A stretch of 60,000 nucleotides of DNA from positions 2,420,001-2,480,000 of the forward strand of contig NC_087245.1 of the NCBI RefSeq assembly GCF_037042905.1, in the 5' to 3' direction. The notes beneath the pieces are model-generated. The model was not told where the DNA came from and did not search any database. It was given only the letters and a program-made list of their open reading frames with translations. Within the stretch, counting starts at the first letter, position 1, and every line of letters starts with the position of its first letter. The DNA comes from Lytechinus pictus. Taxonomy: Eukaryota. This document shows, piece by piece, positions 1,431 through 25,400 of the stretch. The translations under genes were made by a program, and so were the position numbers.

Positions 1431-1592
1431 TTAAGATGTTTTTAAAATTAATTACAAAATTGCCGAGATTGTAGATTTAACATTGCAGAATTTTCAAATT
1501 ATCTTAAGATTAATGATATTCCTTAAGCGCCCGTACATTATTTGGAAGGGCACTGTATTGAAATTTGTTTGTCTTATACTTGAATAATTCTA

Positions 1593-1825
1593 CAATGCAA
1601 AAACTTTGGTGTTGATTTAACACCGGCCCGGAATCTATATATGTCCACACCAGACAAGTATTAAACAACACCAGTTTCGTTTTGGTCTAACACCAGATAT
1701 AGGTGTTTATACAACACCAATTAGTATCAAAACAGCATCGGTTTGATTCCAAACTGGTGTTTTTTTCAATACTTCTCTGGTGTGGACATGGCTGGTGATA
1801 AATCAACACCCGAGTTTTTGCAGTA
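1593..1825. mobile_element. Short palindromic MITE with CA(C/A)TGCAAAAACT termini (EnSpm/CACTA-like)
   Basis: TIRs caatgcaaaaact..ggtgttgattta / taaatcaacacc..agtttttgcagta; internal AACACCA repeats. A related truncated copy lies at ~13711-13935. Confidence 0.6.
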
Positions 1826-2762
1826 AATTGGTTTACATTTTGTAGATTGAAATTATTACTTCAGGTTGTTTTAAGTTATGTTACCAAAATGTGCAGGCAC
1901 ATCACGTTTTAACTGCACATATTGGTAACAAAAATGATCTTGCATGCACTATCGGCACATATTGGTTAAAAATTTATTTTACCAAAATGAGCCATAACAA
2001 GGGGCCACTTGATGATTCATCTTACAGTTCCTTCCGTTACGGGTGATACCGTATGCAGCGGGGGGGGGGGGGCAGAGGGGCAGTTATATCCCCCAAACAA
2101 TTTATAACTTTTTTTTACTGAAAACATTTACAAAATTAATCATAAGTGTGCACGATATCCTTCATTTTCACTTAAGAAAATGTAAAAGCGCCCCAATGGC
2201 AAGCTCAGTCGCTTCGCTCCCTCGCTTTTGGGTTTCATAAAAAATGTTAATACGTGTCCCCCCGGAAAAAATTTTGCGTACGACCATGGTCATCTCCCAA
2301 CCATGAACACAAATGGACACCCATGATAAGTTGAAATTTCATTTTGCCATATTTTTAAAGGACAAGTCCACCCCAACAAAAATTTTGTTTGAATAAAAAG
2401 AGAAAAATAAAACGAGCCTAACAATGAAAATTTCATCAAAATCGGTTGAAAAAAAAGTTATGACATTTTAAAGTTTCGCGTAATTAAAAAAAAAAGTTAT
2501 ATTCCCATTCTGGTCAGTATGCAAATGAGGAGACTGATAACATTATCCACTCACTATCTATTTTGTATTTCATTACTTGAAATATGATCATTTTCATTTT
2601 CTCATTGCCATGAGAAACAAACGTTTATTCCTTCCTGACCATGTGGAATTTCCATTGTTTTAATATTCTGTGGTTCAAACAAGAGGGTCCTTATTGTCAA
2701 ATCAGTAAAAATTGAATTATTGTATAATGCAAACAATAAAAAAAAATATCGAGTGAGGTACA

Positions 2763-3751
2763 TGTCAGGATAGAAATTTAATTACAGATGTATTTCAGTT
2801 AGAGCTCAAACATGTGTTTAAAATAGTTATTTGGTCCAGGTTAGGGTAGGCATGTAGACAAGCATGTACATATGTTTCGAATACTTTGAAAGCAAGCATT
2901 GGAAACGCTTGATACCCCCCCCCCCCTTTAGAGTACAAGTGTACCAGGTTTATGTCATATTTTATACAGGTGTTCGAAATATTTCTTATTAGAAGTATTT
3001 TCATACAGGTGTCGTAAATAACCTAAAGTGATCTAGCATTGATGAGTGTAGATGTATAGATACACAGGAAGTGTCTTTTATTAATAAGAATGTGTCGTTT
3101 ATGCACTCATCTGTTATCGAAATTCTTTGGATTACTTTTTAGAAATCTTACAGTTAGTCCTAGTAACGGTAGGGTATATTAGGAGGTTAATTTCGGTAAT
3201 TCAGAGAGAACCACCTAAGCTAGAATAGACTACAGATGTTCGTATAGGCAGTCTAAGTTATAACTGAGGGACTACGCCGGTGACGAGATAACGACCCCAG
3301 CTGCCGCCGGTTCTCCACCGACATGATTGGTCAAAATTCATGTCATCTTTGGGGGCTCGATCTCGTCCAATAATTCGTTGAAGCCACATCTCTGATCTGA
3401 GGGCTACTCATCAGGGGGCAACTGTCTGCGGAGGCCGAGGCCGAGTGGAAGAGACATCGCAAGCTGCGGAGGCCAGGAACTGGACCGACCACCAGGGCCG
3501 AGTGGGGCATGTCAAGCCAGAACAGATGATGTGGGCTCTATTCAACTATTGTTTTAAGTTAAGTTATATTTTGTTATATCCATGTATATTTCCATGTAAA
3601 TCATTGTAAAAGATATCAAAGGAAACCACATAATGATTTAAGAGCTTTGATTAAATCTTTTACTAACTGTATACCTCAGTTTTACATATTCCTTATTTGG
3701 CGTCAAGCAGCAGTAGTAAATAATTAAAAAAAAGTCACTTCCCACGTGACA
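2763..3751 (+). repeat. 5' LTR (989 bp)
   Basis: TGTCAGGA...CACGTGACA; direct repeat of 6869-7854. Confidence 0.95.
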
Positions 3752-3754
3752 ATT

Positions 3755-3772
3755 TGGAGGTCCCACCGAGAT
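3755..3772 (+). promoter_or_regulatory. Primer-binding site complementary to the tRNA-Gln 3' end
   Basis: TGGAGGTCCCACCGAGAT starts 3 nt after the LTR end. It is the reverse complement of ATCTCGGTGGGACCTCCA, the 3' 18 nt of metazoan tRNA-Gln including CCA. Confidence 0.92.
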
Positions 3773-5455
3773 ACTGCTGCTTGAAATTATTCAAAATTAT
3801 TTAGGAAAGAAATTAATCTGTGGTCATCTTTCCGAATGGATACTTTAATGATGGTCTATTGGTAATAGCTCTTAAAGTATTTCTCCCCAAGGTGTGCATT
3901 GAAGCCTTGGTACTATAATCATACTTGCTATGCTTGAATTTACATTTGGATAGTACAGTGAATTATTGTGGGAAATTTTCGCTAGGAAAATATATTTCAT
4001 ACCTTTTTTTTCGGCCGGGTAAACAGCATTTAGGGAAAGCAGACCCTGTTTTGATGCTATGGTATATAGTGGGCTGTTGGTCGTTAGGATAAAGGATATG
4101 TCGGGAAGAACTGTTTGTTCTTATTTCACATTACTGTCTATTCTTATGGGTAACTCGTTGGCATGGTAGCAAGTATTGAATGATACAAGTTTACGTGCTT
4201 GGATAGATTCCAGTGTTGAATTTGACTAGGCTTTGAATCCTCTTGTGTGAAGTGGATTGGTGTGGTTCCGCATGGTTTAATTGTATGCTCATTGGGAGAT
4301 ACATTCTAGTGTGCTTGCTAAAAAGCACTAGGGTTTGGCATGTGTTGCCAGGTGTTAAAGCTTTTGCTTTGTTTATGCGGATGGTTAAAGCCTGTTAGGA
4401 TATTTGAATTTGTTGGAATCTATAGTTAATAGCCGCTAAGGCTAGCATTGAACAAAAAAAATTCCACGTTAGGTAGGGAAATGGGCCTTGTTGGAGGCAT
4501 GTAGAATGGAGATCGATGGACACATATTGATGGTTAATTGTTTCTTCCGCTAAAAAAAACCCCCTTAATAACCCCCTTTCCTTGGTCTAATGTCTTCAGT
4601 AGTCTATTGCTTTTTAGACTTAAATTTGCTTGGATGAAATATAATACAGATTATTGATCTCATATTTGGAACTTTGGATTTCTGATCGAATATTTGTATC
4701 GCATGTGCTTTGATTAGAGAAGTTGTTCACATGGTTTGTGTATGCTCGCTAGGAGATACACGTTAGGGTGCTCAATGGGAGGCTCTAGGTTTGACATTGG
4801 ATGTCAGGTTTTATGTGGAGGCTTATAATTAAGCGGTTTATGGATACTAAATTATATTGCATTGAATTGGTGGTGTTTCGCATGTTTGGATATGGCTCTC
4901 AGCTAAGCGCGAGAAACCGTCCACATGGTCTAGGGTATTTGATCATGGGCGTTGGACGCCATGTGGAAAGGATTTTGCCAATTTTTATTGCACAGAAGTT
5001 CAAAATAACAGATTAAGAGGAAATTGTCTTTTTTTTTATAGGCGATATTGCATTTGATAGGCTTTAGATATTGCGTATGGTGGATAGGTGTTTCGCATGG
5101 TTGAATTTTGTACGCTCATTGGGAGGTACGTTCTAGTGTGCTTACTGGAAGGCACTAGGGGTTCAGGCATTGGTTGCCAGGTTTATGTGAAAACTGAAAG
5201 CCAAGAGAATATTTAAATCTTGTCAGATTTTAATGTTTACTCATTATATAGCTCATTAAAGCAGATTATAGGTTTATCAACTTTTGGTGAGGAAATAGGC
5301 TTTAGTAAATGGAATTTATTTAGTTTTGTCTCACTGGCTCTGTCAGGTGACAAAATGCGAAAGAGTGCGAATTCCAAATAAAAATACATAATGTAAAAAA
5401 GAACTTCTACTGGTGCAAATACAGTAGTTCGAATTTAACCCAATAAATATACTAC

Positions 5456-5535
5456 ATAATGATAATAATAATAATACTTAGGATTTATACAGCGTCTTAT
5501 ACATTTTTGGTCACATGCTCAAGGCGCTTAGAAAA
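5456..5535 (-). mobile_element. L2/SINE-type 3' tail fragment inside the LTR element interior
   Basis: Minus strand reads taagcgccttgagca...aagacgctgtataaat...(TAT)n, the same architecture as the L2 tail at 53566-53633. Confidence 0.55.
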
Positions 5536-6854
5536 CATCATAGGATTTAATGAATTAAATCAACACATAGTTAAGATTAAAAAACATTTCGAATTACATT
5601 CAAATTATATACACATGAATCATTTCACTTATTCTGTTTATATATACATATGACAGCTACTTCATGGAAGGTTTTCTCATTTCTTTCAGGAACCCTGGAA
5701 CCAGCACACAGCGTTCACATTTCAACAGGCTCTTCGCTGTTTTGTAACTTTTAGGTTAAGGAAACTGTGTTTGGTAGGGCTTAGTTATACATAGTATAGG
5801 TTAGTTTAGGGCCGATAGGTTTTAGTTAAGTTGATTAAGATTGTAAACGTAGTTTTAAGAACGTATATCTTGTTATTTCACAGAATTAAAATAACAAGCC
5901 AGAATTACTTAAAAAAAAAAATCTTCAGTCATTTTTATAACACTATATATTGTGTAATGTTTTAGACTGAATAATTTCACCTAAAAAAAAAAATATATAC
6001 ATTTTGAGATGCATCTTCGGTATAGATTTCAAAAGTAACAAAGTTTTCAATGATGTGTTAACAGTAAATCATTATACTGAACCACTTAGGATTTGAATGA
6101 TTATATTATACATATACACCTAGATTACTGTATTGTGAATATTTGAAAGAAAACTGGTTCTTTAATAAGAAATGTCAATTGTCTCTTCAACTATGAGACA
6201 TATTGTTTGTAATTTTTAATCTTTAAAACAAAAGTGAGACACTTATTTTGAAAAGGGATAGATTGATTTTCAATTAGCAAAGCAATGTTCAAAGTTATAA
6301 AAGACTTTATTATTGAAGCAATGTCTAACGGTTATATTATTGTATTTTTTATGTAGAATTTTAATCCATAATATAACATTAGTAAGAATCATTTTACTTC
6401 GTTAAAATACAGCTTTCAGAAAGTTTACTGATTTTTAAGTTAGACATCAATGTAGTTTTAAAGCATTGAATGTTTTTTGAGAAGTTTGCCGAATTTGATA
6501 GCTCTCTTTATTGATCTTTTACAAAACAAGATTTTCATAGATAGTAGAAATTAGTTCAAAATGTTTTGCAAAACCATTGACATTTAGACAGTGAAGGTTA
6601 CATTGTTATCTTTAAAAAAATAGTATCTTGTTTCAACAATATTATTTAAACAAAGATGGCTTATTGGAAATAAGCTCTTGTATATGTCTTTGCATGCTAC
6701 ATCTATACATATACCACTGTATATACTTAATGGATTATTCGTTTTATGATATGGATAATTAACGTTTTCATGAAATTGAGTAATATCTTGTTAAAGGAGA
6801 CTCTGTTATAAATTTCTTTAGTGGATATAATTCAGGTTCCCTTAATTTTATCTT

Positions 6855-6868
6855 AAGGTGGGGGATAT
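6855..6868 (+). promoter_or_regulatory. Polypurine tract (PPT)
   Basis: AAGGTGGGGGATAT immediately before the 3' LTR TG. Confidence 0.8.
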
Positions 6869-7854
6869 TGTCAGGATAGAAATTTAATTACAGATGTATT
6901 TCAGTTAGAGCTCAAACATGTGTTTAAAATAGTTATTTGGTCCAGGTTAGGGTAGGCATGTAGACAAGCATGTACATATGTTTCGAATACTTTGAAAGCA
7001 AGCATTGGAAACGCTTGATACCCCCCCCCTTTAGAGTACAAGTGTACCAGGTTTATGTCATATTTTATACAGGTGTTCGAAATATTTCTTATTAGAAGTA
7101 TTTTCATACAGGTGTCGTAAATAACCTAAAGTGATCTAGCATTGATGAGTGTAGATGTATAGATACACAGGAAGTGTCTTTTATTAATAAGAATGTGTCG
7201 TTTATGCACTCATCTGTTATCGAAATTCTTTGGATTACTTTTTAGAAATCTTACAGTTAGTCCTAGTAACGGTAGGGTATATTAGGAGGTTAATTTCGGT
7301 AATTCAGAGAGAACCACCTAAGCTAGAATAGACTACAGATGTTCGTATAGGCAGTCTAAGTTATAACTGAGGGACTACGCCGGTGACGAGATAACGACCC
7401 CAGCTGCCGCCGGTTCTCCACCGACATGATTGGTCAAAATTCATGTCATCTTTGGGGGCTCGATCTCGTCCAATAATTCGTTGAAGCCACATCTCTGATC
7501 TGAGGGCTACTCATCAGGGGGCAACTGTCTGCGGAGGCCGAGGCCGAGTGGAAGAGACATCGCAAGCTGCGGAGGCCAGGAACTGGACCGACCACCAGGG
7601 CCGAGTGGGGCATGTCAAGCCAGAACAGATGATGTGGGCTCTATTCAACTATTGTTTTAAGTTAAGTTATATTTTGTTATATCCATGTATATTTCCATGT
7701 AAATCATTGTAAAAGATATCAAAGGAAACCACATAATGATTTAAGAGCTTTGATTAAATCTTTTACTAACTGTATACCTCAGTTTTACGTATTCCTTATT
7801 TGGCGTCAAGCAGCAGTAGTAAATAATTAAAAAAAAGTCACTTCCCACGTGACA
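6869..7854 (+). repeat. 3' LTR (986 bp)
   Basis: The differences from the 5' LTR that I spotted by eye are a poly-C length change (12 vs 9 C) and one A/G substitution (tttacatatt vs tttacgtatt). Confidence 0.95.
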
Positions 7855-8739
7855 GTACATCATTCTCCCATTTGCATATTACTGAGTTATTCATATAACT
7901 GTTTGGGGAAAAATAAGCGAAACTTTTAAATGTCATAACTTTCTTCTTTTTCGTCAGATTTTGATGAAATTTTCAGCATTATGATTGTTTGATATTTCTC
8001 TATTGATTCAAATCAGCTTTCTTCAAGGGCAAACTTCACATTTAAGAGAGAATCGAGAATAATGAGAAACTGAAATGTTTCAAGTTTATATAAACATTGA
8101 AAAATTATTAAAGGACTAAGAACAAGTTTAAGATGAATGAAATAACATTGTAGATCACAACGTCAAACAGGAATTTTTCGACACATTCCTAGATTTGTAA
8201 GAACTTGTATATATTCATCTGCATTCTTAACTTGAATGATCCCTTAAAAAAAGGAATTCCAATCGGTAAATGCTAGATTTGACGCTTCGATAATCACTGA
8301 CTATTTTGAATGCTAACTGGCTCGTTTTTTAAATTCAATGAAAAGAACACACAAACCTTCGACAAACATCCTAAATCTCATAAAAATAAAAATATTTGCA
8401 CGGCAAAACCGATCTACGCTAATTCAAATGCCAAAAATATTGCTTCAAATGAAAATCGCGTGAATTTCGCCGGGAAATCCTATACATCAAGCAACGCATC
8501 GGCTTCACACACTTTTTGCAGTAACGTGTCTGATAAAAACAGAATAAAGATTACAACAAAAAATCATCAATATCATACATAATCATAAATGATATCAAAA
8601 TTTGAGTCATTATCAAGGCAATGCATAGTAGCATAAATAAACAATTTTTTTTACACAAGTGAAAACTTGAAAATGACTATCAGAACGGAAAAAATATAGA
8701 TATAAACTACAAATCCTATCATGTATTCACTGGATAAAC

Positions 8740-9143
8740 CACTGAACTGAAATTAATAATTCATTAATAGTGGAACTATACGAAATTGAAATTGGGTGAA
8801 ACATTAAGTATATATTAATATATTTCCAGCGTGAAGGCTTTTACGACTCAGTTATTACACACATACACGCACACACACACCCTTACATGCGTATAAATCA
8901 AGTTCAAAATGGCGCCACATAATATTCACTGAAAAACCCCCACTAAACTGAAAGTAACGATTCACTTAGGGGAACTACTAGTATACGAAATAGACATTGG
9001 ATGAAACAATAACTATAAAGTAATAGGCCTACATCGTCATGTCCAGCGTGGGCTTTCACTTTTCAATTAACTCACACACATACACCGACATCCACCCTCA
9101 CACGCACACATGCATATAGAACAAGTTCAAAATGGCGCTACAT
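8740..9143. repeat. Degenerate ~200-bp tandem duplication ending in CAAGTTCAAAATGGCG
   Basis: The block ccact(g/a)aactgaaa...ggaacta...gaaaca...ccagcgtg...acacacatacac...caagttcaaaatggcg(c) occurs twice (8740-8921, 8940-9143). Confidence 0.7.
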
Positions 9144-9803
9144 TGTTGTGCCATTAAGTAGAATCCAAGTTCGGAGTGAGGGAAAGGGAATGATGAAATC
9201 AAATATGAATATAGGAATAGTCCAGTGCCTTATAGGCGGCCGTAAGGCGAGTCGAAAAACCAGCTAAATTTGTAGGTTCTTTGAATGAAAATAAATAAAC
9301 CGCCGTTTCGACTCGCCGTATGGTCGCCGTAGGGGAAGTGTGACTGCGCCATCAGCGAATCCACCAGATATCACACAACATAACATTAACAAAATCTAAA
9401 AGTATAAAGTTTCAGAATCAATTGAGACATACACATAGTTAAAAGGAAATGTCCTTGATATCGATAAAAATAGACTACACACATCTATGTACATTCTAAA
9501 GGTATTGACATCTTATTAATACACACATATACTATATACCAACATTGTATTTAAAATTGGCGCCTCGAAATGGCGTCATAATAATAGCAACACATCCGAT
9601 TCAAAATGACGCCACAAAGATGTCACCAAAATCCTTGGAGAATTGAAATAAAATGAAAAATAAAGCGGTAAAATCGTATATCATTATATATGACGACTAT
9701 TCAATGTCTTAATCCTGTGCGAACATGAAAAAATGGTACATGATATAGCATATCGTTATATTGTGTATATAGGCCCTACAGAATAAAACGGAAGTTCACT
9801 CAC

Positions 9804-9900
9804 CGAATATGACAAAATTGTGAAGAGAATTGAACTGGGGTTCGTATTTATACGATACCATGACCTGGTCCCCCACCTTTGACCATGACCACTGAACTGC
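9804..9900 (-). promoter_or_regulatory. Candidate TATA promoter with a very short non-coding first exon
   Basis: Minus strand: TATAAATA at 9852-9845; nuclear-receptor half-sites AGGTCA, TGGTCAAAGGTG and AGTTCA at 9861-9898; consensus donor G|GTGAGT at 9804/9803. A strong acceptor tctttattctgtttttatcag lies downstream at 8530. Confidence 0.35.
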
Positions 9901-10935
9901 ATCCATTGACTTAAGGGAAATCTTCTTAAGTAGCTTAAATATCTTTTATAACATTGTCTTTCTATAGCTCACTGGGAGACTTCTTTGTAATGATAGGTTA
10001 ACTAGTCCACTTTAAAAAATATCTTAGTCTTACTCCCCAAATACCCAATTTGACATCATGCATAAGTAATTTTTGTCATTATCATTATGATTTATTACTA
10101 TTGTCATGATTGTCATTATTATTACTAAAAATACAAAGTTTAGATGGAATGAGATGAAGTTGTTGGATAAAAATATGGAATTCAAATATATTTATTATCA
10201 TGCAATTCCCGATTTGTCTCTTATTTTTCTATAAGAGTTTAAACTTTTAGACTACGCAATTTGAAAACGGGGCAGTGCCGGTATCTTAAATGGGGAGGGT
10301 AAGGTGTGAACAACAGGGGTAGTATAAGGGACGTCGCTGAACCATTTCCAGGGGGGGGGGTGGAGGCCCTTGATTACCGACAGGTATCGGTACCAATTAC
10401 CCCCACGTCCGACGACTACGAGGTAGTCATCGTATTCCCATGGAGGTCAGCGACTCATTAAAAGGACATATATCTCACTAATTGTCGATGTGAGCTGGAA
10501 TCACGAGATAATAATTTTGACATTCCGACCTGACATTCTAAACACGCTTTTGATTGATAAAGAATAACAAACAATTATTGCAGTAGCGAAGCGCGATCTG
10601 AATTTTTCCTAGATTTTTACCTAAAACGGGACATTTTATAAATTTTTTAATTATGAAAAGAAAGCGTGTCATGCCCAATAAATGATATTAGTGCAAAACG
10701 AGAGCTGAAGACCTTTGAAATCTTTACTTGACAATTTATTACTGAGGGCAAGTTGTGTATTTCAAGAAACAATACGAGCGCGAGCCAATATTTTGTGTAT
10801 ACTGACCCAAAATCATGAAAATGGTAACTTTTTAAGCACTGTTTAACATGAAGGGACATTTTTATATGAAACTCAATCACTAAATTAAGGATTAGAGCGC
10901 GAAGCCCGAGCAGATTTTTTTGGGCAATTTAGAAC

Positions 10936-12031
10936 AACAAGTGGAATGCCTCTGGCGGTCTCACCTGCATCACGCGATTCAATATAGCAGCAGTGCTGAC
11001 TTTGAAAACTACTATAACTCGCACAAGATGTTCAGTGATACTTGGTTACTCTTGTTTCCACGTTTTATGAACTAGACCAATACACTTACAAAGATATGAT
11101 GGTAATTCAACAAATACCCCCAACGTGGCCAAAGTTCATTGACCTTACATGACCTTTGACCTTGATCATGTGACCTGAAACTCGCACAGGATGTTCAGTA
11201 ATACTTGATAACTCTTTATGTCCAAGTTTCACGAGTCAGATCCATAAACTTTCAAAGTTATGATGGTAATTCAACAGATACCCCCATGGCCAAAGTTCAT
11301 TGACCTTTGACCTTGGTCATGTGACCTAAAATGCACACAGGATGTTCAGTGATACTTGATTACTCTTATGTCCAAGTTTTATGAACTAGACCAACATACT
11401 TTCAAAGTTTTGATGGTAATTCAACAAATACCCCCAATTTGGCCAAAGTTCATTGACCCTAAATTACCTTTGACCTTGATCATGTGACCTGAAACTTGCA
11501 CAGGATGTTCAATAATACTTGATTACTATTATGTCCAAGTTTCATGAATCAGATCCATAACATTTCAAAGTTATGATGGTAATTCAACAGATACCCCCAT
11601 TCGGCCAAAGTTCATTGACCCTAAATGACCTTTGACCTTGGTCATGTGACATGAAACTCATGCAGGATGTTTAGTGACACTTGATTAACCTTATGTCCAA
11701 GTTTCATGAACTAGGTCCATATATTTTCTAAGTTATGATGACATTTCAAAAACTTAACCTTAGGTTAAGATTTTGATGTTGATTCCCCCAACATGGTCTA
11801 AGTTCATTGAGCCTAAATGACCTTTGACCTTGGTCATGTGACATGAAACTCAGGCAGGATGTTCAGTAATACTTGATTAACCTTATGTCCAAGTTTCATG
11901 AACTAGGTCCATATATTTCTAAGTTATGATGGCATTTCAAAAACTTAACCTTAGGTTAAGATTTGGTGTTGACGCCGCCGTCGGAAAAGCGGCGCCTATA
12001 GTCTCACTCTGCTATGCAGGTGAGACAAAAA
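10936..12031 (-). mobile_element. Helentron-associated non-autonomous element (HINE/Tsp/DINE-1-like) with tandem core repeats
   Basis: Subterminal IRs GTCTCACCTGCAT (10958-10970) / ATGCAGGTGAGAC (12014-12026); terminal hairpin GTCTCAC..GTGAGAC; GCC microsatellite; about six 150-190 bp core repeats; AACAAG end; inserted in an A-run with no TSD. Confidence 0.8.
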
Positions 12032-12442
12032 CCTGGACATTCTAATCACTGTCGATACGGAGAGCTCTTATCGTTTAAATTGCGACCATAACTATCACGA
12101 CAGCAATAGAAGAGTGCTATTTGATATTATTTCACTAGCAAAGATTTGAAGGAACTCAGAGATCGAGTAAAAACACGGTAGTCTACATGAAGCAATAGGG
12201 ACAGCCCTGCTTGACCCGACAATTTATTATATTTTACAGTCCTGCGCATATGTAAATTACCTCAAAACTGAATTCACCTATTCACCCTCACCTTTTCTCA
12301 TTCATTTTCCTATTTCTCCTTTTTCCCCTTCTTTTTTTTCTTTCTCCCTCTTGTTCCTTCATCCTCGTCTTTCCCTTTTTTCTTTCCACTTTCCCCCTTC
12401 TTTCCTCTCCTTTTCTTTTGTACATTATTTTTCCGACGGAAG

Positions 12443-12633
12443 CAGGGGCCGCGGAACAAGTTAAAAGAGGGTGGGGGTGAAGGTGCTGAGCCAAAAGTGG
12501 GGGAGGGGCTGACCGTGCCAAAAAAATCACAATTATATGGTAATTTTTAAGTTTTTGTACACGATTGTGGAAAAAAAAAGTGGGTGGCTGAAGCCCCCCA
12601 AGCACCCCCCCCCCCCCGCTTTTGCGGTCCCTG
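12443..12633. mobile_element. hAT-like MITE (CAGGGGCCGCGG termini)
   Basis: TIRs caggggccgcgg / ttgcggtccctg. Related to the copy at 32055-32347 in opposite orientation. Confidence 0.6.
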
Positions 12634-12857
12634 GGGAGTGCAGATTTTTCCACGATATCCAGAGGAAGGGAGGAGGTCGAAGGTGTGAGTGAGTGAAGGG
12701 GCATTAATTGGCTCCCCCCCCCCCACAAAAGAGAGAGATAGAGAGATAGAATGGGGAAATGAACGGAAAGGAGATGACATGAGAGGTAAAAGAAAGTAAA
12801 GGAAGAGGGGGAAAGAAAGAAGGAGAGAGAAAGAGAAGGGAGAGAAGAGAAAGGGAT

Positions 12858-12915
12858 AGATGTTTCGGCTACCTCTGTTGACTCCTTCAAAAACAGGCTT
12901 GACAAACACTTGTCC
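12858..12915 (+). pseudogene. CR1-type LINE ORF2 extreme C-terminal fragment
   Basis: Translates DVSATSVDSFKNRLDKHL, typical of the CR1 ORF2 end (S.NSFK.RLDK), followed by T-rich 3' UTR-like sequence. Confidence 0.55.
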
Positions 12916-13096
12916 TACCAATGCTTCCTTAAAACATTCGTCCACCCTCTACGCAACATGTACTATGTAATTCATTACACAAACTAAGGAGATAGTTGAT
13001 TTCTTATGTACACAGTGGTTTCTATTATGTACTCTTGTTATTATTTGTACTTTGTGTATACTTTTACTGTTGCATCATGTGATCGTTTTTTTTTAA

Positions 13097-13670
13097 GGTC
13101 AAGTTCACCCCAGAAAATTTTGATTTGAATAAATAAAGAAAAAATCAAGGAAGCATTATGCTGAAAATTTCATCGAAATCGGATGTAAATTAAGAAAGAC
13201 AAATTAAATTTTCGCTTATTTTCACAAAACAATGACATGCAAATGAGACAGTCGATGATGTCCCTCACTCACTATTTCTTTTGTTTTTTATTGTTTGAAT
13301 TATACAATATTTCTTTTTTTTTACAGATTTGACAATAAGGACCAACTTGATTGAACCATATAGTATTAAACAATGCTAATTGCACATGTTCAGGGAGGAA
13401 TAAATCGTTCTTTCACACGACAATAGGCAACAAAATTGAATATTTCATATTTCACATCATAAAATACAAAAGAAATAGTGATGTCATCAGTCTCCTCGTT
13501 TGCATACCGACAAGGATGTGAATATAACTGTTTTGTGAAATTAAGTGAAACTTTAAAACATATTTTTTTATTTTACATCCGATTTTGATGTAATTTTCAG
13601 TGTTATGCTTGTTGAATTTTTCTCTTTTTATTCGAATCATTTTTTTTTTTGGGGGGGGTGGACTTGTCTT
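13097..13670. mobile_element. Kolobok-like TTAA MITE (same family as 722-1430)
   Basis: TTAA..GGTCAAGTTCACCCC ... GGGGTGGACTTGTCTT|TTAA, with shared subterminal sequence. Confidence 0.8.
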
Positions 13671-13989
13671 TTAAAGAAGCGAATAAAGAAGAATTCATTA
13701 GTCAAGTATACACAGCAAAAACTGCGGTGTTAACCGGTGTACATAGAGGACCACACCAGTTATTTTACACCGGTGTTAAATTGACAGTGTTAGTTTAGCA
13801 CCTATAGGTGTTATTGCAACACCTTTGGTTGTTACATGTACACTTTTTGGTGTTATATTCAATCTCTAGGGTGTAATTTTAACACCAGAGGGTGTGGTCC
13901 TGTATTAACACCCACTGGTGTCAGTTTTAACACCACTACTCTCGGAACGACCGGAAGTCTACAGGCTTGCCTTATTCTTCCGTACACTG

Positions 13990-14089
13990 TTGATGATGAT
14001 GATGATGGTGATGGTGATTATGGTGATGACGGTGATAATGATGACAAAGATGATGATGATAATGTTGATAATGATGATGTTGATGATGA
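13990..14089. repeat. Degenerate (GAT)n microsatellite
   Basis: tgatgatgat... run. Confidence 0.9.
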
Positions 14090-14099
14090 GGAAATATAA

Positions 14100-14550
14100 A
14101 TTTGAAAGAGTGAAAATAAATTGAAGAGAAATGAAAAGGAGAGGGGAAAGCAAAGAAGGGAAAGGAAGAAAAAGAGAAAGGAGATGGGAGAGAAAAGGAA
14201 GGGGACCAAGAGACAGAGGAGGGTAAGAAGGGTAGGAGAGAGGAGACGGGGGAAAAAAGAAAGAATGAGGAGAGAGAACAGGAAGGGGGCCAAGAAAATG
14301 AAGGAAACAAGAAATTTGAGAGAGAGAAAAAGAGAGGGGAAATTAAATAGCAAATATAGGAAAGGGGAACAAAGAGGGTGTACATTATTGGACAGTAAGT
14401 CAGTGCATAAAGGGGCAATTGGAAAGAAATGAAAGACAATGAAGGTCTTAATGAGGGGACTAATGCTCTGATGAAACCAACAAAAAGAAGGGAGATACCC
14501 GGGAGATACCAATAATAAGAAAAGGGAAATCAAAGGAAATAAAACATTCA
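14100..14550. repeat. GA-rich low-complexity tract
   Basis: Purine-dominated top strand. Similar tracts at ~16480-16880, ~28130-29010 and ~47780-48130. Confidence 0.85.
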
Positions 14551-14616
14551 TGTGTTTGCTTTTTACTCTATTTAGACATGGCCTAACTGCATATTGGTGG
14601 TTTGAATTAAAATTAC

Positions 14617-14968
14617 CTTGGTCACATTTGCTCTACGGTGGCCGTACGGCGAGTCGAAAACAAGTGTTTTAACATTTTTTGTACCAGCTGCATATTGGTG
14701 GTTTTAATTAAACTTAATAAAAACGGCTGTTATCGACTCGCCGTAAGGCTAGTCTGCTATGCAGACTCTGAATGGCTCGTGAAGTGGGATCTGCAGCTGG
14801 TTTGCGAACCAGCCTGAAAGGGCGAGCGAAGCGAGCCATTTCAGATCTGCAGCTCCAGTAGACCTAGTCTGCTATGCAGACTCCTTGAATCAGCTGTGAT
14901 ACACACACTGCAGATGTGGGTCTACAGTTGTAGACTACCGTATGGCCCCCGTAGAGCAAATATGACCG
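14617..14968. mobile_element. Palindromic PIF/Harbinger-like MITE, interrupted at 14750-14937
   Basis: GGTCACATTTGCTCTACGG..CCGTACGGCGAGTCG is inverted against CGACTCGCCGTA..CCGTAGAGCAAATATGACC. Related copies at ~9225-9345 and 15410-15590. Confidence 0.65.
14750..14937. mobile_element. Small element with TAG...CTA termini and a 9-bp TSD (AcademH-like)
   Basis: Termini TAGTCTGC / GTAGACTA; flanks CCGTAAGGC (14741-14749) and CCGTATGGC (14938-14946), 8/9 identical. Confidence 0.65.
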
Positions 14969-15103
14969 TTCCAATATTATACTCTCGAAAGTGCGTAGCC
15001 TGTCAAAATCATCACCGCGCCTGTTGCCGTGATCACCTCGTTCTCATATTGTTCATCGTCGGATTCGATTTCTCGAAATTTTTGTTAATTCAACATCGTC
15101 ATC

Positions 15104-15191
15104 ATGCATCTGGGGTCAACCATCTCTGTTTTGATTTCGCTGGGAATGATAGCCCCCTCTCTACAATGCCTGCATCTATTTTGACCTCAAG
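15104..15191 (+). pseudogene. Decayed signal-peptide exon (putative exon 1 of the EGF pseudogene)
   Basis: atcATG start; hydrophobic MHLGSTISVLISLGMIA; in-frame TGA at 15182; ends CAAG|GTATAG after 29 codons + 1 nt (phase 1), matching the phase of the EGF exon at 19105. Confidence 0.4.
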
Positions 15192-15894
15192 GTATAGGCT
15201 TATTTAGGGAAAATAAGGTTTTCTTCTTCTTTTGGAGAATTGAGGGATTAATTTCTATTAAAGAAGGATGATTTAACGGATTGATAGAAAAGGGGAAAAA
15301 AGTTATAAAAATATATATTGTAGTTCGTTTGAAAGGGGGAGCGAGGGAGGGAAAATTTTGAAAATGCGGTCTCGGTCGTTGTTGACAAGAAATAATATTC
15401 AGTGTTTGCATTTTACTCTATTTAGACAGGGAACTAACTGCATATTGGTGGTTTGAATTAAAATTACCTTGGTCACATTTGCTCTACGGTGGCCGTACGG
15501 CGAGTCGAAAACAAGTGTTTTAACATTTTTTGTACCAGCTGCATATTGGTGGTTTTAATTAAACTCTACGGTGGCCGTACGGCGAGTCTTGACAACCTTG
15601 ACAAGCAAAATGAAAAGGGGTTCCATCACTTTAAAATTACTTAATTTGTCTCCGTCCATCCACTCCCAATTTGCAAGTAAAATAATATGGAAAGGGCTCT
15701 CTTGTAGTCCAGGCCTTGGCGAGACCAACAAAGAGTGGACCACCCCTACCCCCCTCCCTGGATCTACCAGCTTGAAAGGAGAGGGGTGTGTATTCAGACA
15801 GATAAGAGGAAATATGTGTTCATGAGGGGATTGAGAAATGGGAAATAAGAGAATGATGCGGATGTAATGAAAATTACAGTAATAAAAATAGCAG

Positions 15895-18410
15895 CATAGG
15901 CGGATCCAGGGGGGGCGAGGGGCCCGCCCCCCCCCCCCTATTGGCGGAGCAAAAAAATGAAAAAAAAGGGGGAAAGAAAGAAAGGCCATAGGCCATAACA
16001 TAATTACTACAAAGTGTCACCAGTGAAGAATAGGGGGAATGAAAGAATAGGAAGAAAGAGGAGAGAAGAGTGGAAAAGGGTGAGAAAAAGGGAAAGAAAT
16101 AGGGATGAGACAAAAGAGAAGGGAAAGCAAGAGGTGGAAATTGGAAAGAGAATAAGAGGCAAACTTAAGAATAAAATAACTCATTAAACAATACAAGACA
16201 TTTAACAATGGTCACTAACATGTAAATAAAGTAGTAGGGCGCCTTTGTAAAGCAGTTTTAAGAACTGAACAGGCCTACCCTGCAGTATAAAATAAATAAA
16301 ACAAAATAAATAAATAAATAATAATTGAATCGCATCGAGCACAAAAAAGGTAAAAGTAGAGCTGAGTAAATAGACTCCCAGAAGAAGTCCAAGCACTGTG
16401 TTGATATTGCACATGAGGAGATTAATTGTAAACCATCTAAATTCAAAACCTGAAACAGTACAACAACAAATAATTCCTGAAGAAAGATAGGAGAGAAAAG
16501 GCAGAAAAAGAAGAAAAAAGAGGAAGGGGAGTGAGAGAGGGAAAAGGAGAAAGGAAGGAGAAGAGGGGAGAAAGGAGAGAGATGAAAGAGAAGAAGCAAG
16601 GAGGAGGGGCAGAGAATTCCAAGAGAGGAAAGAGAAAAGGGGAGAGAGGGAAAAGAGAAAGAAAAAAAGGAAAGAGAAAGAGAGGGAGGAAAGGGGAGAG
16701 AGAGGAAGGAGAAGAGGGGAGAGAGAGAGGAAGGAGAAGAGGGGAGGGAGAGAGGAAAGAGAAAGGGGGAGAAGCAAGGAGGAAGGACAGAGAATTCCAA
16801 GAGAGGAGAGAGAAAAGAAAGAATAGAAGACAGAAGGGAAAAGAATAGAAAAAAGACAAATGAGGAGAGAGAAAATGGAACAGTACTGTTCATCAACAAA
16901 AGATACAAGTTAGAAAGGAAATCAAATCAAACAAGCTTCAAATCACTGATTATCTTTACTGCTTGAGGTAGGAATGAATTTTGGTACCTATGAATTATGA
17001 CAGTTTATCAAAAATTTCGTCTCGCGATTTGCGCTCCTATTCATGATTACAAAAGTGCTTGAAATATCCAGTTTTCAAGCCTAAATGTCAAAAGATTTCA
17101 CTCACTCATTAGGCTTATTACATTAATAAATATGATAATAAAATTTTCATGAATTCCTAACTAAATTGTCCCTTTTTCAGAAAGGAATATCGACAAGTAT
17201 CATATCGCGCTTAGGAAGAGGAATAGGAAGATAGTCATCATTTTCATATGAATACAAAATGTCCTTAGGCCTTGAATGTCCAGGTCCTAGGTCAAAATAA
17301 TAATACTAATATCAGCTCGCGCTTCGCACTCGCATCCTTTATTAAGTGCTATGCACATCCTATTCACAATTCACCTACACAGTGCTTTAAATTATAATTA
17401 TCTAAAATCAAATTACTCTAAAATTATCAAAGTTTCAGATCAGAATATCAAAAAAATTTCTGCTCGCGCTTTGCGCTCGCAATATTAATGTAGACAAATA
17501 CCAAATTACCCATCCTTTTCATGATTTACAAAACATGAATATAGAGTGTCCCATTTTAAGTTCTGAATTTTTTTTTTTCTGCTCACGCTCCGCGCTCGCA
17601 ACAATAATTGTTTGGTTTTATATCTATACTGTTAATGATTACAAAAAGTGCTTAGAATGTCAATTTTTTTAGGTCGGAATGTAAAAAAAATTCAGCTCGC
17701 GCTTCGCGCTGGCATTATTAGTTGAAATATGTATCGTCTTCATGGCTGACTGCAAAACGTCCTTAACAGGTCCCTTTCCGATCAAGCCAGAACCCATATT
17801 AACATTTTCTGCTCGCGCTTCGCGCTCGCAGTTATTATCTAGTTACATACGCATCTTGTTCAGGTTCACAAACATTGCCAAGAATGTTCAATTTTGAGGA
17901 CAAAATACATGAAATTCCAAAAGTTTTCAGCTCGCGCTTCGCGCTCGCACTATTTAAATAGAGCTAATGAGATTATTACACTTTTTATGTTATTTTATAA
18001 GAATAAAGCTAAGAAATAACTGTTAGGACAACGGCGTTTTGCCCCCCCCCCCAAAAAAAAAAAAAAAAAAAAAATTCACGACCAAGAAAAAAAAAGAGAA
18101 AAGGAAAGGGATAAGGGTGAAATATAGGCCTATTATTTTGCAAATGTTATGTGAAAATCTATACAAATTTTGATTTTTTTAATAAAAATGTCAAAATTTT
18201 TGCTCGCTCGCTTCACTCACTCGCAACTTCTTAATAATTTTACGCGATACGCCGTATCGAGCCCCCTTCAAATTTTTGGCTCATTACGCCACCGGGACAA
18301 CCCATTCAAAGAAACAAACAAAGATCAACTTTTAGCGGCCGGTCGGGGAGAATATAGGTGAACATTTTTCGGCCCCCCCCCCCTATTGGCGGGAGCTGGA
18401 TCCGCCCCTG
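15895..18410 (+). mobile_element. Large non-autonomous hAT-like element with an internal GCTCGCGCTTCGCGCTCGC repeat array
   Basis: TIRs CATAGGCGGATCCAG / CTGGATCCGCCCCTG; CCCCCTATTGGCGG near both ends; GA-rich tract; periodic motif. No clean TSD. Confidence 0.7.
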
Positions 18411-18818: not shown

Positions 18819-19024
18819 TCGTGGGTTCGAATCGTAGCCATGGCGTGTTTCCTTCAGCAAGAAATTTATCCACACTGTGCTGCACTCGACCCAGGTGAGG
18901 TGAATGGGTACCTGGCAGGAGTAATTCCTTGTATGCACTGAGCTAAAGCCGGGGTAATAACAGCAGCGCTTTGTATCCTCTGACAAAAAGCGCTTTATAA
19001 ATCCAGCTATTATTATTATTATTA
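18819..19024 (+). mobile_element. 5'-truncated tRNA-derived SINE with L2-like tail
   Basis: B-box GGTTCGAATC; body shared with the SINE at 44781-45090; tail cagcgcttt...aagcgctttataaat(TAT)n. Confidence 0.85.
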
Positions 19025-21699: not shown

Positions 21700-21830
21700 A
21701 ATTCTTGCTAAATCGATATTCACTTTCGAAAACCTGAGGGCTTTGGGACACTCTTGCAATACTACCAAAGATTCCCCAAGTCTAAACTCTTTTAAATTTA
21801 AGTTAAAGAAGTTTCTTCAATATAGTCGTC
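21700..21830 (+). pseudogene. 3' end of ORF2 of an older LINE (host of the young LINE insertion)
   Basis: Decayed LAKSIFTF..W..L..KDSPSLNSFKFKLKKFL. The 3' UTR appears to resume after the young LINE (25902-26262) and ends in GAAAT/TGAAT repeats. Confidence 0.55.
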
Positions 21831-21881
21831 AGTCGATTTAACTCTGTATTACTCAAACATTTTTTTCTTCAATTTATTTCG

Positions 21882-22148
21882 AGACCAAGAGCGATAATAG
21901 TGAAGCTCACCACTTATCGCAAGAGACCTGAAATCCTAAAGATGCGCAGGAAGCTGAAGGGAAGTGGTATCGGGATCGATGAAGCATTGACGAAGACCAA
22001 CCAGGATCTACTCTATGCAGCTAAACAGCATCAGAAGGTGAAAGAAGCATGGACTTCAGATGGACGCGTAATCGTCTTACTACCGGCAACCAGAGAAAAT
22101 ACCATCAAACGTGTGATTCATAGCAAAGAAGAATTGAAGAAATTATGA
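21882..22148 (+). pseudogene. LINE ORF1 C-terminal fragment
   Basis: RPRAIIVKLTTY..KLKGSGIGIDEALT..KVKEAWTSDGRVIV, typical of the CR1-group ORF1 RRM/CTD region; 5'-truncated. Confidence 0.8.
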
Positions 22149-22469
22149 TGAAAGAATGATTATGACAAGAACATAACACCGACATAACATCACTGGACAG
22201 AGACAATGAAATGAATGAGAACAATGAAAAAAAAGTCATGAACACATATCTGTATATTCATTTTTTTTCCACTGATGCATTTCATGCATTCTTTGTTATA
22301 TTTTTGGTTTCGTTCTCCCCCCCCCCCCAATGTTCAAACTACATTTTATTCAGTTTTAGTATTGGTCTATTTGCAAAGACCATTTTAATGTGTTTTTGAT
22401 TTACTGTTTGTTAGTTGTTTTTTTTTTTCGTTTATTCTAATACTTATTTTGTTGTTGTTGAAAAATTAC

Positions 22470-25400
22470 ATGCCTGTTAATTTGTGTTCTGTTTTCCCAT
22501 TCTACTCTATCAATAATGATGATTTTCTTAACTGTGTAAATCAAACTAACAATCAACTTATAACATATGATGATTTAAATAATATGAGTGAAGATATAAG
22601 ACTAAATGATTCTGCTCCTATTCTCGATTTTGAATTTGATCAACAATATGTAAATGATTGCAAATACTATTCCGACGATGACTTCAAAGAATCTATTGAC
22701 CCTAATTTGGTACAGTTCAGTGCTATCCACTTTAATTCGAGGAGCATGGTAAAAAATTTCGATCAAATTTCTGCGTACCTGAACAGCCTTTCTTTCAATT
22801 TTACTGTTATAGGTATAACTGAGACTTGGTTAAACTCAGAAAACGAAAATCGGTTCATATTGGATGGTTATAACTTTATCAATAATAATAGAAAAGACGG
22901 TAGAGGAGGAGGCGTTGGAGTATATTTAGATGAACGACTACTTTATCAATTACGCAATGATCTAAATCCGACATGTTCTTCGTGTGAATCTATTTTCATT
23001 GAAATCAATATACCTAATGTTAAAAGTATTATAGTTGGAATAATCTATAGGCCCCCGAAATCTAATCTTCATCAATACGCTGAATATTTTTCCAATTTAT
23101 TGCAAAAACTTTCAAAAGAAAACAAACAAATATATCTACTTGGAGATTATAATATCAATTTATTGAATATGACTTCAAATAGTACTATCAACTTAATGAA
23201 TACAATTGCACAATATGGCTTTTATATCAAAATTAACTTGCCAACTCGTGTAACTAATACATCTCAATCTATTATAGACAATATATTAACAAATGAAAGT
23301 GATATTATCTCGGGTGTGCTTTATTCTCCAATAACTGATCTCATGCCAATTTTTTGTTACAAGAAAGGAATTCTTAAGAATGATTCAGCCCAATATTACA
23401 CTTCAAGGAAAATCAATGAATCAACGATCAATAGTTTTTTTGTTGAACTGTATAATGTTGACTGGAGTGAAGTACTAGCATGTATCGATGCTGACAAATC
23501 CTATAATTTATTCATGAAAATGTTCATCAAACTTTATGATAAACATTTTCCTCGTCAACAACAAAAAAGGAGAAGAAGAAATAGAAAACCGTGGGTTACC
23601 AACAAAATTTTAAGATTAATTAAAAACAAGAATAAATGTTTCAAAATATTTTGCCAAACTAGACTTGCCAGTAACGAGAGAAAATTTAAAAAAATTAGAA
23701 ATAAACTTATTAATATCATTCGTATATCTCGTCAAGAATATTACAAAAAAATATTATATATGAATCAGAGTAGTATAAAAAAAGACATGGAAAACTATTA
23801 ATGAGTTATTAGGTAAGAAGAAAAATCTAATCCCCAAAGTGTTTAAATGTAATCAAAAAATATATTCTCAACCATCTGAAATATCTGATGCATTCAATGA
23901 GTATTTTGTAAATATTGGAAAAAATATTAGTGATATGGTCCCACAATCTATTCATTCTTCTCACTTTTATTGTCGAAAAAATGTGGTTGGTTCCTTCTTT
24001 TTATCACCTGTACATATAAATGAATTGATTAATATTTGTAAATGCCTTAAAAGTAGTGCAAGTTGTGGAATTGATAACGTAAATTGTAAAGTTGTTAAGC
24101 GTGTCATTTATGCCATTGCTTTGCCTTTAGCTCACGTATTTAATCTGTCTTTTGCAACTGGGAAAGTACCTTCAAAACTCAAAGAATCTAAAGTAATTCC
24201 TGTTTTTAAGAAAGATGACCCCGATAAATTTGTAAATTATAGACCAATATCCCTCTTACCATGTTTCTCCAAATTGCTTGAACGACTAGTATATAATCGA
24301 TTACATAAGTTTTTAAACAGTAATGATATCTTAAGTGATTCTCAATACGGATTTCGACCCACTTATTCCTGCATGTGAGCATGTTCTTTTAAAAGTTAAA
24401 CAAAAAATAATGGATTCATTTATTGCTGACGAACATATAATTGGGGTCTTCTTAGATCTATCTAAAGCTTTCGATTCTATGGACCATTCATTACTTTTAT
24501 TTAAGCTTAATCAATATGGAGTTCGAGGGATCGCGTTAGACTGGTTTAGGGATTATCTTTTAAATAGGGTTCAACATACATTTGTCCACGGTGTCTTATC
24601 TTCTTCATTAAATGTTTCCGTTGGGGTACCGCAAGGATCAATTTTAGGCCCCTTGTTATTTCTTTTATATATAAACGACCTTTGTAAATCATCTAATTTG
24701 TTAACCTTTTATCAATTTGCTGATGACACAAGTATGTTTTATTCTTCTAAAGATTTAAATAATACCATCCACATCCTGAACAATGAACTCCAAAATGTTT
24801 CCGACTGGTTGAAAGCAAATAAGTTGTCCCTGAATATCAATAAAACTAGATGCATCTATTTTAATAAAAATAAATCTTTAACACGAACCCATACTGACAA
24901 ATCTAATTATTACAATCCAATTGACAACGCTCATATTCACATTTATATCGACAATAAACGTATCGAATTAAGTAATTCCATTAACTTTTTAGGTGTCACA
25001 TTGGATAATCTTTTGAGTTTTAAGTACCATATGATAAATGTATTACATAAGATAAGTAGGAATACTGGTTTAATTTACAAACTTAAGCATAGTTTACTTC
25101 ATAAAAATCTGATAACTCTATACCATTCCATAATTTTCCCTTATTTAAAATATTGCAATATTGTCTGGGCTACCAATGTAACCTCATATGAATTGGACTC
25201 AATATTCAAAATTCAAAAGAAATGTTTAAGAATAATTACCAATTCCCATTACCTAGTACCATCCGCACCTTTATTTAAGAAATTGTCTTTACTTAATATA
25301 TATGATATTGATAAGCAAGAACTCGCAATATTTATGTATAAGTACAAGAAGAGGTTGTTACCCACTCCTTTTTCAGATCTTTTTCAATACAATAATCAAG

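Follow-up and report, generated by a model that had tools for sequence, protein, structure and literature searches.

A young non-coding LTR element of Lytechinus pictus, probably mobilised in trans, with a triplicated three-hairpin RNA module in its leader

The window, i.e. the whole 60,000-nt stretch of Lytechinus pictus DNA analysed here, contains an LTR element of 5,092 bp (2763-7854). The features of the element and of its borders are the following.

2758-2762, plus strand: left target-site duplication (TSD), GTACA, within a host repeat
2763-3751, plus strand: 5' LTR, 989 bp, TGTCA...TGACA
3213-3512 (CpG-rich), 3259 (TATA-like), 3650 and 3723 (ATTAAA), plus strand: sites of the 5' LTR with putative roles
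3703-3715, plus strand: U5 arm of the U5-leader stem, pairing with 3772-3784
3734-3750, plus strand: small hairpin at the LTR end
3755-3772, plus strand: primer-binding site (PBS), complementary at 18 of 18 positions to the 3' end of tRNA-Gln(UUG)
3772-3784, plus strand: leader arm of the U5-leader stem
3773-5303, plus strand: G/T-rich non-coding leader, with diverged units at about 4115-4489, 4582-4898 and 4980-5303
4282-4352, plus strand: three-hairpin RNA module, copy 1
4739-4808, plus strand: three-hairpin RNA module, copy 2
4865-4967, plus strand: possible degenerate fourth module copy (weak, E 0.048; a background match is better, E 0.013)
5109-5181, plus strand: three-hairpin RNA module, copy 3
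5455-5531, minus strand: antisense L2-type LINE 3'-tail-like fragment ending in (TTA)n, with an AT-rich extension possibly up to about 5670
5690-6854, plus strand: AT-rich non-coding 3' interior
6855-6868, plus strand: polypurine tract (PPT), adjoining the 3' LTR
6869-7854, plus strand: 3' LTR, 986 bp, TGTCA...TGACA
7855-7859, plus strand: right TSD, GTACA

The initial annotation of this locus had overlooked the U5-leader stem, the hairpin module with its triplication and the L2-type tail.

The alignment of the two LTRs shows only one substitution (3686 versus 7789) and a 3-nt gap in the poly-C run that follows GATA (12 C in the 5' LTR, 9 in the 3' LTR), which confirms the near-identity claimed in the initial annotation; the perfect TSD and PBS and the PPT reported there hold as well. 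With this single substitution in 986 bp, K is 0.001 (95% CI 0.00003-0.006); if 1e-8 to 2e-9 substitutions per site per year are assumed, the insertion would be about 50-250 thousand years old. When the flanks are rejoined without the element, they restore a single copy of the host repeat, and two paralogous copies of this repeat in the window carry GGACA once at the equivalent place (a third has a deletion there). GTACA is therefore a true TSD. The PBS, separated from the 5' LTR by 3 nt, is identical letter for letter to the 18-nt tRNA-Gln(UUG) PBS construct given in PMC1592299. The same PBS is named tRNA-Thr in PMC3564811; the assignment to tRNA-Gln follows the explicit construct of PMC1592299. 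The PPT lies directly before the 3' LTR. The likeness of a 10-nt stretch inside the LTR to a Pro PBS is presumably due to chance.

The interior (3752-6868, 3,117 nt) gave no gag or pol trace in any of the coding tests, in line with the earlier claim. Its longest stop-free frame reaches 82 aa; the median for shuffled sequence is 86. Profile searches of the interior and LTR found no Pfam family in any of 12 frames at E<=1, and none of 15 sub-fragment frames matched a retroelement family at E<=10; the same profile search matched the RT or endonuclease of three LINE ORF2 controls taken from the window. In tblastn with 24 proteins of Gln-primed elements, the interior scored at most 23.9 bits (20 shuffles: 19.6-25.0). 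An integrase C-terminal remnant, suggested near 5690-5740 by a short motif, was not supported, nothing being found at E<=10 among five candidates, and a frame neighbouring this lead had 0 matches in 1.84 billion proteins. ARAGORN detected no tRNA gene in the element and Rfam gave no match to it. The leader units align with one another with local scores of 87, 162 and 88 (shuffle maxima 40-43); TRF did not report these diverged repeats. The antisense tail fragment, tentatively assigned to L2, carries a motif also found beside the window's own LINE tail (53566-53620) and shows a weak blastn match to 18991-19024 (E 0.010).

The PBS is framed, in a retrovirus-like manner, by the U5-leader stem (13 bp, z -4.09, none of 200 shuffles as good), which may be used in priming. 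The underlying complementarity, a 12-bp perfect match, was reached in 1 of 5000 shuffles and at 19 of 2985 control positions in the window. The hairpin at 3734-3750 is one that we take to be U5-IR-like. Stems of the U5-leader type of at least 11 bp occur in 3 of 98 other Gln-primed loci and in 0 of 1960 shuffles: this type of stem is real but not general and gives no pointer to a superfamily. Self-priming through this pairing was considered and rejected, given a perfect tRNA PBS next to the LTR and a pairing located farther downstream.

The leader also carries a module of about 70 nt in three copies, i.e. nine hairpins, in which a recurring hairpin consists of a stem, a bulged G, a 3-bp stem and a five-base loop often ending in UGG. 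Copies 1 and 3 are 77% alike. In the predicted consensus fold, 71 of 72 cells are paired, with four two-sided changes among the three copies, the structure being derived from the same three paralogous sequences on which the tests rest. These criteria were reached in 5 of 500 shuffles, and slid controls were 28-51% paired. From each of three folded starts, 1000 simulations of neutral divergence never reached both criteria together (energy alone 0-2 per 1000, covariation alone 15-23 per 1000). Folded singly, the copies reach z values of only -1.7, -2.5 and -1.3. The predicted fold has outlived the sequence divergence of the copies. In five pairs a one-sided G-U change preserves the pairing, and the consensus energy is -23.7 kcal/mol on the plus strand versus -15.6 on the minus strand; these changes and this gap of about 8 kcal/mol favour plus-strand RNA as the acting form of the predicted structure. 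The module model found no convincing match in the rest of the window, no homologue among the 100 loci covered of the 105 metagenome loci (all but L101-L105; best E 0.12), and the module is without match in Rfam.

Relatives of the non-coding interior are found in contigs of two organisms, at about 99% identity in organism A and about 90-92% in organism B. Organism A contigs cover 4394-5373 with seven other letters and four gaps, and some (run X1) have a PPT-LTR junction at which the LTR begins differently, which indicates more than one subfamily. In run X1, the interior is found at depth 2, may represent this same locus, and lacks 6156-6698. Organism B contigs match 4741-5069 (26 other letters, 4 gaps), 5122-5560 (41 and 18), 5290-5530 (23 and 13) and 5502-5861 (28 and 26); they run across the second and third modules, extend to either side of the L2-type tail, and include overlapping but different interiors (records 14 and 15). 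As these interiors are about 90-92% identical and the LTRs are 0.1% apart, the layout is far older than the LTR pair. The summed contig depth in organism B, which is not a copy number, is 316-476 over 3803-4526 but only 40-137 over 4527-5431; the deepest leader contig listed there (depth 311) stops matching at about 4460-4489, i.e. at the end of the first unit; a commoner family member seems to share one leader unit only. The bin over the antisense tail (5432-5612) is a local depth peak in all four runs used, out of 24 listed, bins 5613-5974 are common to the deeper organism B contigs, and 5975-6698 is barely shared. At the site that differs between the LTRs, the letter of the 3' LTR accounts for nearly all depth in the four runs. 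The contigs of the runs examined did not reveal another full-length insertion flanked by a TSD of its own, the LTR start had 0 matches in prokaryote genomes, and the PBS had 0 matches in viral contigs.

The element had been described as recently or currently active. Recent insertion stands, the LTRs being one substitution apart; current activity finds no support in RNA, zero depth being seen over 3803-5250, as well as over 6156-6868, in two raw runs of which about 6% and 25% were read. The LTR reads of these runs carry alleles unlike those of the element and probably come from other LTR copies; a run search for the element returned no RNA run among the holders listed.

Globally, these data make it likely that the element is a young copy of an older non-coding lineage of the LARD type, copied in trans by a Gln-primed Ty3/Gypsy or BEL/Pao helper. 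Its non-coding interior has probably been re-transposed in trans, as in LARDs. The element would be transcribed from the 5' LTR to the 3' LTR, and the helper Gag would recognise the structured leader, most likely through the three-hairpin module, whose fold is conserved. Host tRNA-Gln would then anneal to the PBS within the complementary U5-leader arms, the helper RT would prime the plus strand at the PPT and rebuild two identical LTRs, the near-identical pair found here being the product, and the helper integrase would insert the cDNA with the observed 5-bp duplication. Retroviral packaging signals are located downstream of the PBS. The triplicated module may be a handle for the copying of the element and is a candidate packaging signal. 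A stronger proposal, which we hold to be rather unlikely, is that the parasite has multiplied the packaging signal of its helper: the commoner member would have one module and this element three, each held in its fold by selection, and the recurring hairpin could bind the nucleocapsid of Gag and so outcompete helper RNA for particles.

The module could instead act in RNA export, dimerisation or translation control of a parental gag, or at the DNA level (cruciforms, insulator), a reading that falls a little short of an even chance. Packaging is a prediction from the fold and position of the module, over copy 1 the minus strand too has a stable fold (z -5.1), and tandem repeats of the gypsy 5' UTR are described as an insulator (PMC3286476). 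Against this, the one-sided G-U changes in five pairs and the more stable plus-strand consensus point to RNA, the module lies where retroviral packaging signals sit, and a non-coding element lacks a gag that could be regulated.

A second alternative, with a substantial but minor share of the probability, is that the element is a deletion or replacement derivative, the three modules being the long leader of an autonomous parent and the lineage having merely lost gag-pol. This alternative concerns the origin of the modules; under it the triplication would be no adaptation of a parasite, and it is compatible with trans-mobilisation. The leader of the parent is unseen, and the modules could belong to it. 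Moreover, the likeness of module copies 1 and 3 is below the 85% read-placement threshold, so that 146 unaligned letters beyond 4489 (record 12 of run X11) could be a diverged second unit. The depth drop after 4526 in organism B and the deepest listed leader contig, ending at the first unit, speak rather for a commoner member with one unit only.

It is improbable that a single old insertion, with LTRs made near-identical by gene conversion or assembly collapse, explains the data, the organism B contigs then being the same locus. LTR gene conversion is an established phenomenon, and the failure to see a second full-length insertion would fit. However, the PBS, U5-leader stem, PPT and TSD are all intact, the one differing LTR site looks like a fresh mutation (nearly all depth matching the 3' LTR), and the different overlapping contigs of organism B argue against a single locus. 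Least probable is a single decayed autonomous element with a gag-pol beyond recognition: despite the integrase-like motif suspected near 5690-5740, all coding tests are negative, this lead included, LTRs 0.1% apart leave no time for decay, and gag-pol would not fit into an interior of 3.1 kb, half of which consists of leader repeats. The initial assignment to non-autonomous, LARD-type elements is upheld by the lack of coding traces, the related non-coding interiors in two organisms and the intact cis signals.

The Gln PBS is not special, being common in invertebrate BEL/Pao and Ty3/Gypsy elements; this, together with the published non-coding Gln-primed LTR elements of Culex (PMC3286476), leaves the earlier pointer to murine MLVs without weight. 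Among 105 metagenome loci with an ACA end followed by a Gln PBS, 12 are Gypsy-like, 11 BEL/Pao-like, 4 other and 78 unassigned, the labels being seeded by Pfam labels with self-hits included. The element shares only three short DNA matches with these 105 loci beyond the PBS junction, and none by tblastx. A Gln entry was not found in PMC13524379, main text and seven supplements (15 rows of file 4).

As a non-coding parasite keeps only the essentials of replication, the parts of it that are conserved show where the cis signals of an invertebrate LTR retrotransposon lie; here they are a retrovirus-like stem between U5 and leader around the PBS and a three-hairpin module of 70 nt. Should the module be the signal for packaging and be triplicated in the parasite alone, the element would provide a clean, testable case of non-autonomous elements competing for helper particles. 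Furthermore, an insertion as young as this one could be useful as a marker in populations. The literature covered, with most subscription journals and Repbase Reports outside its scope, described neither this family nor any non-coding LTR element with a packaging hairpin in several copies.

The type of element is ordinary, non-coding helper-dependent LTR elements being already known in plants, insects, mice and sea urchins. The non-autonomous Troyka elements, 62 of 70 such families of which are from sea urchins in the part of PMC12440569 consulted, are likewise young and helper-dependent, but their 3' termini mostly end in CG, whereas the present element begins with TG and ends with CA, is flanked by a 5-bp TSD, lacks an ORF and is therefore not a Troyka. 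TRIMs, including Helenus and Ajax of animals (PMC10886601), are also non-coding with a PBS and PPT; as described there, they are below 1 kb, with tRNA or 5S sequence in the LTR of Helenus and Ajax, whereas this element is 5.1 kb long with none detected, and thus is not a TRIM. Mouse VL30 elements are non-autonomous too; according to the passages seen of PMC4859993, 10 of 86 full-length copies are Gln-primed and a helper, MLV, packages their RNA through a psi signal. VL30 are retrovirus-derived and keep a stop-riddled gag/pol, whereas the gag/pol/env remnants and vertebrate host that mark endogenous retroviruses and VL30 have no counterpart in this invertebrate element, which has no Pfam match. 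The cqUNK elements of Culex quinquefasciatus, in the part of PMC3286476 consulted, are non-coding animal elements of about 3-7.6 kb among the rows listed, with internal repeats and without known master copy, and a Gln PBS is found in cqUNK_35 and cqUNK_45. LTR lengths are about 190-700 bp among the rows listed, and the repeats of these elements form regular tandem arrays, in contrast to the 989-bp LTR and diverged units found here, and no RNA fold is reported in that part. The likeness to LARDs such as Sukkula is one of description: as far as PMC7215508, PMC13570524 and PMC6696364 were seen, LARDs combine LTRs, a PBS and a PPT with a non-coding core, conserved RNA structure and presumed trans-mobilisation, with a size above 4 kb (threshold from the latter two). 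The present element likewise exceeds 4 kb and has two LTRs, a PBS, a PPT and a TSD but no gag, pol or env sequence or remnant, and the RNA structure of its interior is conserved among three paralogous copies only. Related interiors occur in contigs of organisms A and B, but without a second full-length insertion. It differs from plant LARDs by its animal host and by a leader with a short hairpin module in three copies.

The 5,092-bp LTR retrotransposon is most likely, taking the route as a whole, the product of mobilization in trans. Transcription would be driven from its LTR, the Gag of a putative helper would capture its RNA through the leader, tRNA-Gln would prime reverse transcription, followed by priming at the polypurine tract (PPT), and integration would generate a 5-bp duplication. 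The features concerned are as follows.

Features of the LTR element (window coordinates)
2763-7854, whole LTR element
2763-3751, 5' LTR, 989 bp, TGTCA...TGACA
3703-3715 with 3772-3784, U5-leader stem, the leader arm lying directly after the primer-binding site (PBS)
3755-3772, PBS, 18 nt, after a 3-nt spacer, with the same sequence as the tRNA-Gln(UUG) PBS built in PMC1592299
4282-4352, module copy 1, three hairpins
4739-4808, module copy 2, three hairpins
5109-5181, module copy 3, three hairpins
adjoining the 3' LTR, PPT
6869-7854, 3' LTR, 986 bp, TGTCA...TGACA

The part of the element worth following is its conserved triplicated hairpin module, a feature additional to those of the initial annotation. 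The leader is made of diverged units, each including three adjacent hairpins. Over the 24 pairs of the module, 71 of 72 cells are paired, with two-sided changes in four pairs and one-sided changes in five; this pairing is reached by 5 of 500 shuffles, and only 28-51% of cells pair in slid-partner controls. As the structure was derived from the same three sequences, neutral divergence was also simulated from each folded copy at the observed depth (74 columns, the three branches having 8, 15 and 5 changes), with 1000 runs per start. The observed energy and the four two-sided changes never occurred jointly (0 of 1000 runs for each of the three starts); taken singly, energy was reached in 1, 2 and 0 runs and covariation in 23, 15 and 21. 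The RNA fold of the module is conserved, as judged from this modelling. The plus strand folds at -23.7 vs -15.6 kcal/mol for the minus strand, and of the six hairpins in first or second position, five display a stem, a bulged G, a 3-bp stem and a five-base loop. The following counts against the module: copies folded singly are moderate (z -1.7, -2.5 and -1.3), and the minus strand over copy 1 also scores well.

It likewise counts against the module that Rfam holds no match to it and that a search for a homologue in the rest of the window and in 100 of the 105 metagenome loci gave none that convinces. The chances that it is a packaging or dimerization signal are about even; that it serves another role is a little less probable. 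It is also conceivable, with slightly lower probability again, that the parent already had three modules, which is compatible with trans-mobilization, and a triplication gained specifically by the parasite is rather doubtful.

The U5-leader stem, likewise absent from the initial annotation, encloses the PBS together with a small hairpin at the LTR end. Its fold has a z of -4.09 (0 of 200 shuffles). A perfect match of 12 bp was given by one of 5000 shuffles and, within the window, by 19 of 2985 control positions. Among 98 other Gln-primed loci, three have stems of at least 11 bp, vs 0 of 1960 shuffles. In three metagenome loci (L074, L102 and L059), the LTR end is perfectly complementary over 11-13 bp to the leader immediately downstream of the Gln PBS, an arrangement resembling the stem of the window. 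In HIV-1, efficient initiation of reverse transcription is associated with a U5-leader stem (PMC1865047), and by analogy the stem of the element may play a role in this step.

Parts of the element are present in public runs of two organisms, 4 of 24 runs having been mapped on 1450-6868 at 85% likeness. Contigs from run X1 (organism A) match the LTR almost exactly (one other letter and two gaps over 2921-3187), include 4394-5373 with seven other letters and four gaps at depth 2, and carry a junction of PPT and LTR at which the LTR start is a variant. These matches and this junction suggest that the window is closest to organism A, X1 possibly including the element's own locus, and that more than one subfamily exists. 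Four stretches, 4741-5069, 5122-5560, 5290-5530 and 5502-5861, are represented in contigs from run X11 (organism B, probably DNA), which differ from the element at about 8-10% of letters and also by gaps. An antisense tail at about 5455-5531 that we take to be L2-type belongs to the non-coding layout, which copies about 8-10% away have in common with the element; the element's own LTRs are only 0.1% apart. Recent retrotransposition of the non-coding form as such is the simplest reading.

In the LTR bins that do not touch the flank, summed depth in X11, which gives no copy number, is 4,386-16,217. Across the interior it is 316-476 at 3803-4526, 40-137 at 4527-5431, 189-354 at 5613-5974 and 2-29 at 5975-6698, and the PPT end has 232. 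In the deepest of the leader contigs listed (depth 311), the match ends at about 4460-4489, with 146 other letters beyond. Because of this profile and this break, a commoner family member seems to agree with the element in its LTR, first leader unit and PPT end but not in its middle, and is a natural candidate for the helper. The short inverted-repeat (MITE-like) element at 1591-1822 is deeply covered in all four mapped runs; another lies at 9235-9328.

Two raw RNA runs were read in part, X21 from organism A to about 6% and X24 from organism B to about 25%, and in these fractions depth is zero over 3803-5250 and 6156-6868. LTR reads occur in both, with alleles differing from the element's copy. 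Those of X21 over 3260-3800 are strongly strand-biased, with the first mate on the plus strand. This orientation corresponds to antisense RNA in most stranded libraries, and if the library is orientated likewise, these reads may be antisense RNA from other LTR copies.

The scan for an ACA end and a Gln PBS yielded 105 metagenome loci, which were classed by Pfam (23 ORFs) and tblastn as 12 Gypsy-like, 11 BEL/Pao-like, 4 other and 78 without class, self-hits included. One of them (L035) is a complete BEL/Pao element with a Gln PBS, a 5-bp TSD and a PPT similar to that of the element. As both Gypsy-like and BEL/Pao-like loci use this primer, the Gln PBS links the element neither to MLV nor to one helper superfamily. 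The pointer of the initial annotation from this PBS to murine MLVs has no weight; the annotation's reading of a recent insertion of a non-coding type stands, from the LTR pair and the coding tests. A complete Gln-primed element is also present at two other loci (L004, at about 4794-7883, and L017). Its LTRs, about 385 bp each, are identical, its interior measures 2.3 kb, and it holds one ORF of 422 aa, for which neither Pfam nor Atlas gave a match, and one of 243 aa; this is possibly another non-autonomous type. In eight loci (L002, L005, L007, L048, L052, L061, L070 and L077), the Gln PBS lies within short repeated units without gag or pol match; these may be arrays formed by a miniature element or a SINE-like repeat.

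The recency of the insertion is read from the LTRs, whose alignment reveals one substitution and three C in a homopolymer as sole differences, as had been noticed by eye (K = 0.001, 95% CI 0.00003-0.006). With rates of 1e-8 to 2e-9, which are our assumption, the insertion is about 50-250 thousand years old. The perfect GTACA duplication previously described is present at both flanks; as these are two halves of one host-repeat copy, whose joint is occupied by a single GGACA in two paralogues within the window, the duplication arose on insertion. The PBS and PPT claimed earlier are also confirmed, the former by its identity to the PMC1592299 construct, the latter by its position against the 3' LTR. 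An old insertion with LTRs made alike by conversion would also display such a pair, and is improbable. Several copies of this high-copy host repeat, into which the element inserted, occur in both orientations (718-1436, 2355-2762 with 7855-8045, and 13089-13675). At 11012-11941, units of about 162 bp form a diverged tandem array, probably a satellite-bearing host repeat.

The interior (3,117 nt), earlier described as free of gag/pol traces, proves so in every comparison: its longest stop-free frame is 82 aa vs a shuffled median of 86, none of the 12 frames of interior and LTR matches a Pfam family, a retroelement family is absent from all 15 sub-fragment frames, and against 24 proteins of Gln-primed elements its scores are not above those of 20 shuffles. 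The same Pfam search matched RT or endonuclease in three LINE ORF2 pieces of the window. A stretch near 5690-5740, presumably resembling an integrase C-terminus, was searched for such a remnant, and support was not found. A decayed gag-pol is very improbable. One of the LINEs is nearly whole (21807-25590, plus strand): it has an ORF1-like end, and two frameshifts divide its endonuclease-RT ORF2 among three overlapping frames, with Pfam matches to Exo_endo_phos and RVT_1. Another (52294-53620, plus strand) is 5'-truncated and keeps a fragment of RVT_1 and a 3' tail of L2 type.

Literature searches found no paper on the element's family, Repbase and Dfam being outside the comparison, and TRIM, Helenus, Ajax and Troyka identities were each ruled out. 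Helper-dependent Troyka elements are abundant in sea urchins (PMC12440569), and from Culex, non-coding LTR elements that lack a known master have been described, of which two are Gln-primed (PMC3286476). The element displays the tested features of LARDs, namely more than 4 kb, non-coding, LTR-PBS-PPT and a conserved RNA fold (PMC13570524, PMC7215508, PMC6696364), and one functional analogue is mouse VL30 (PMC4859993).
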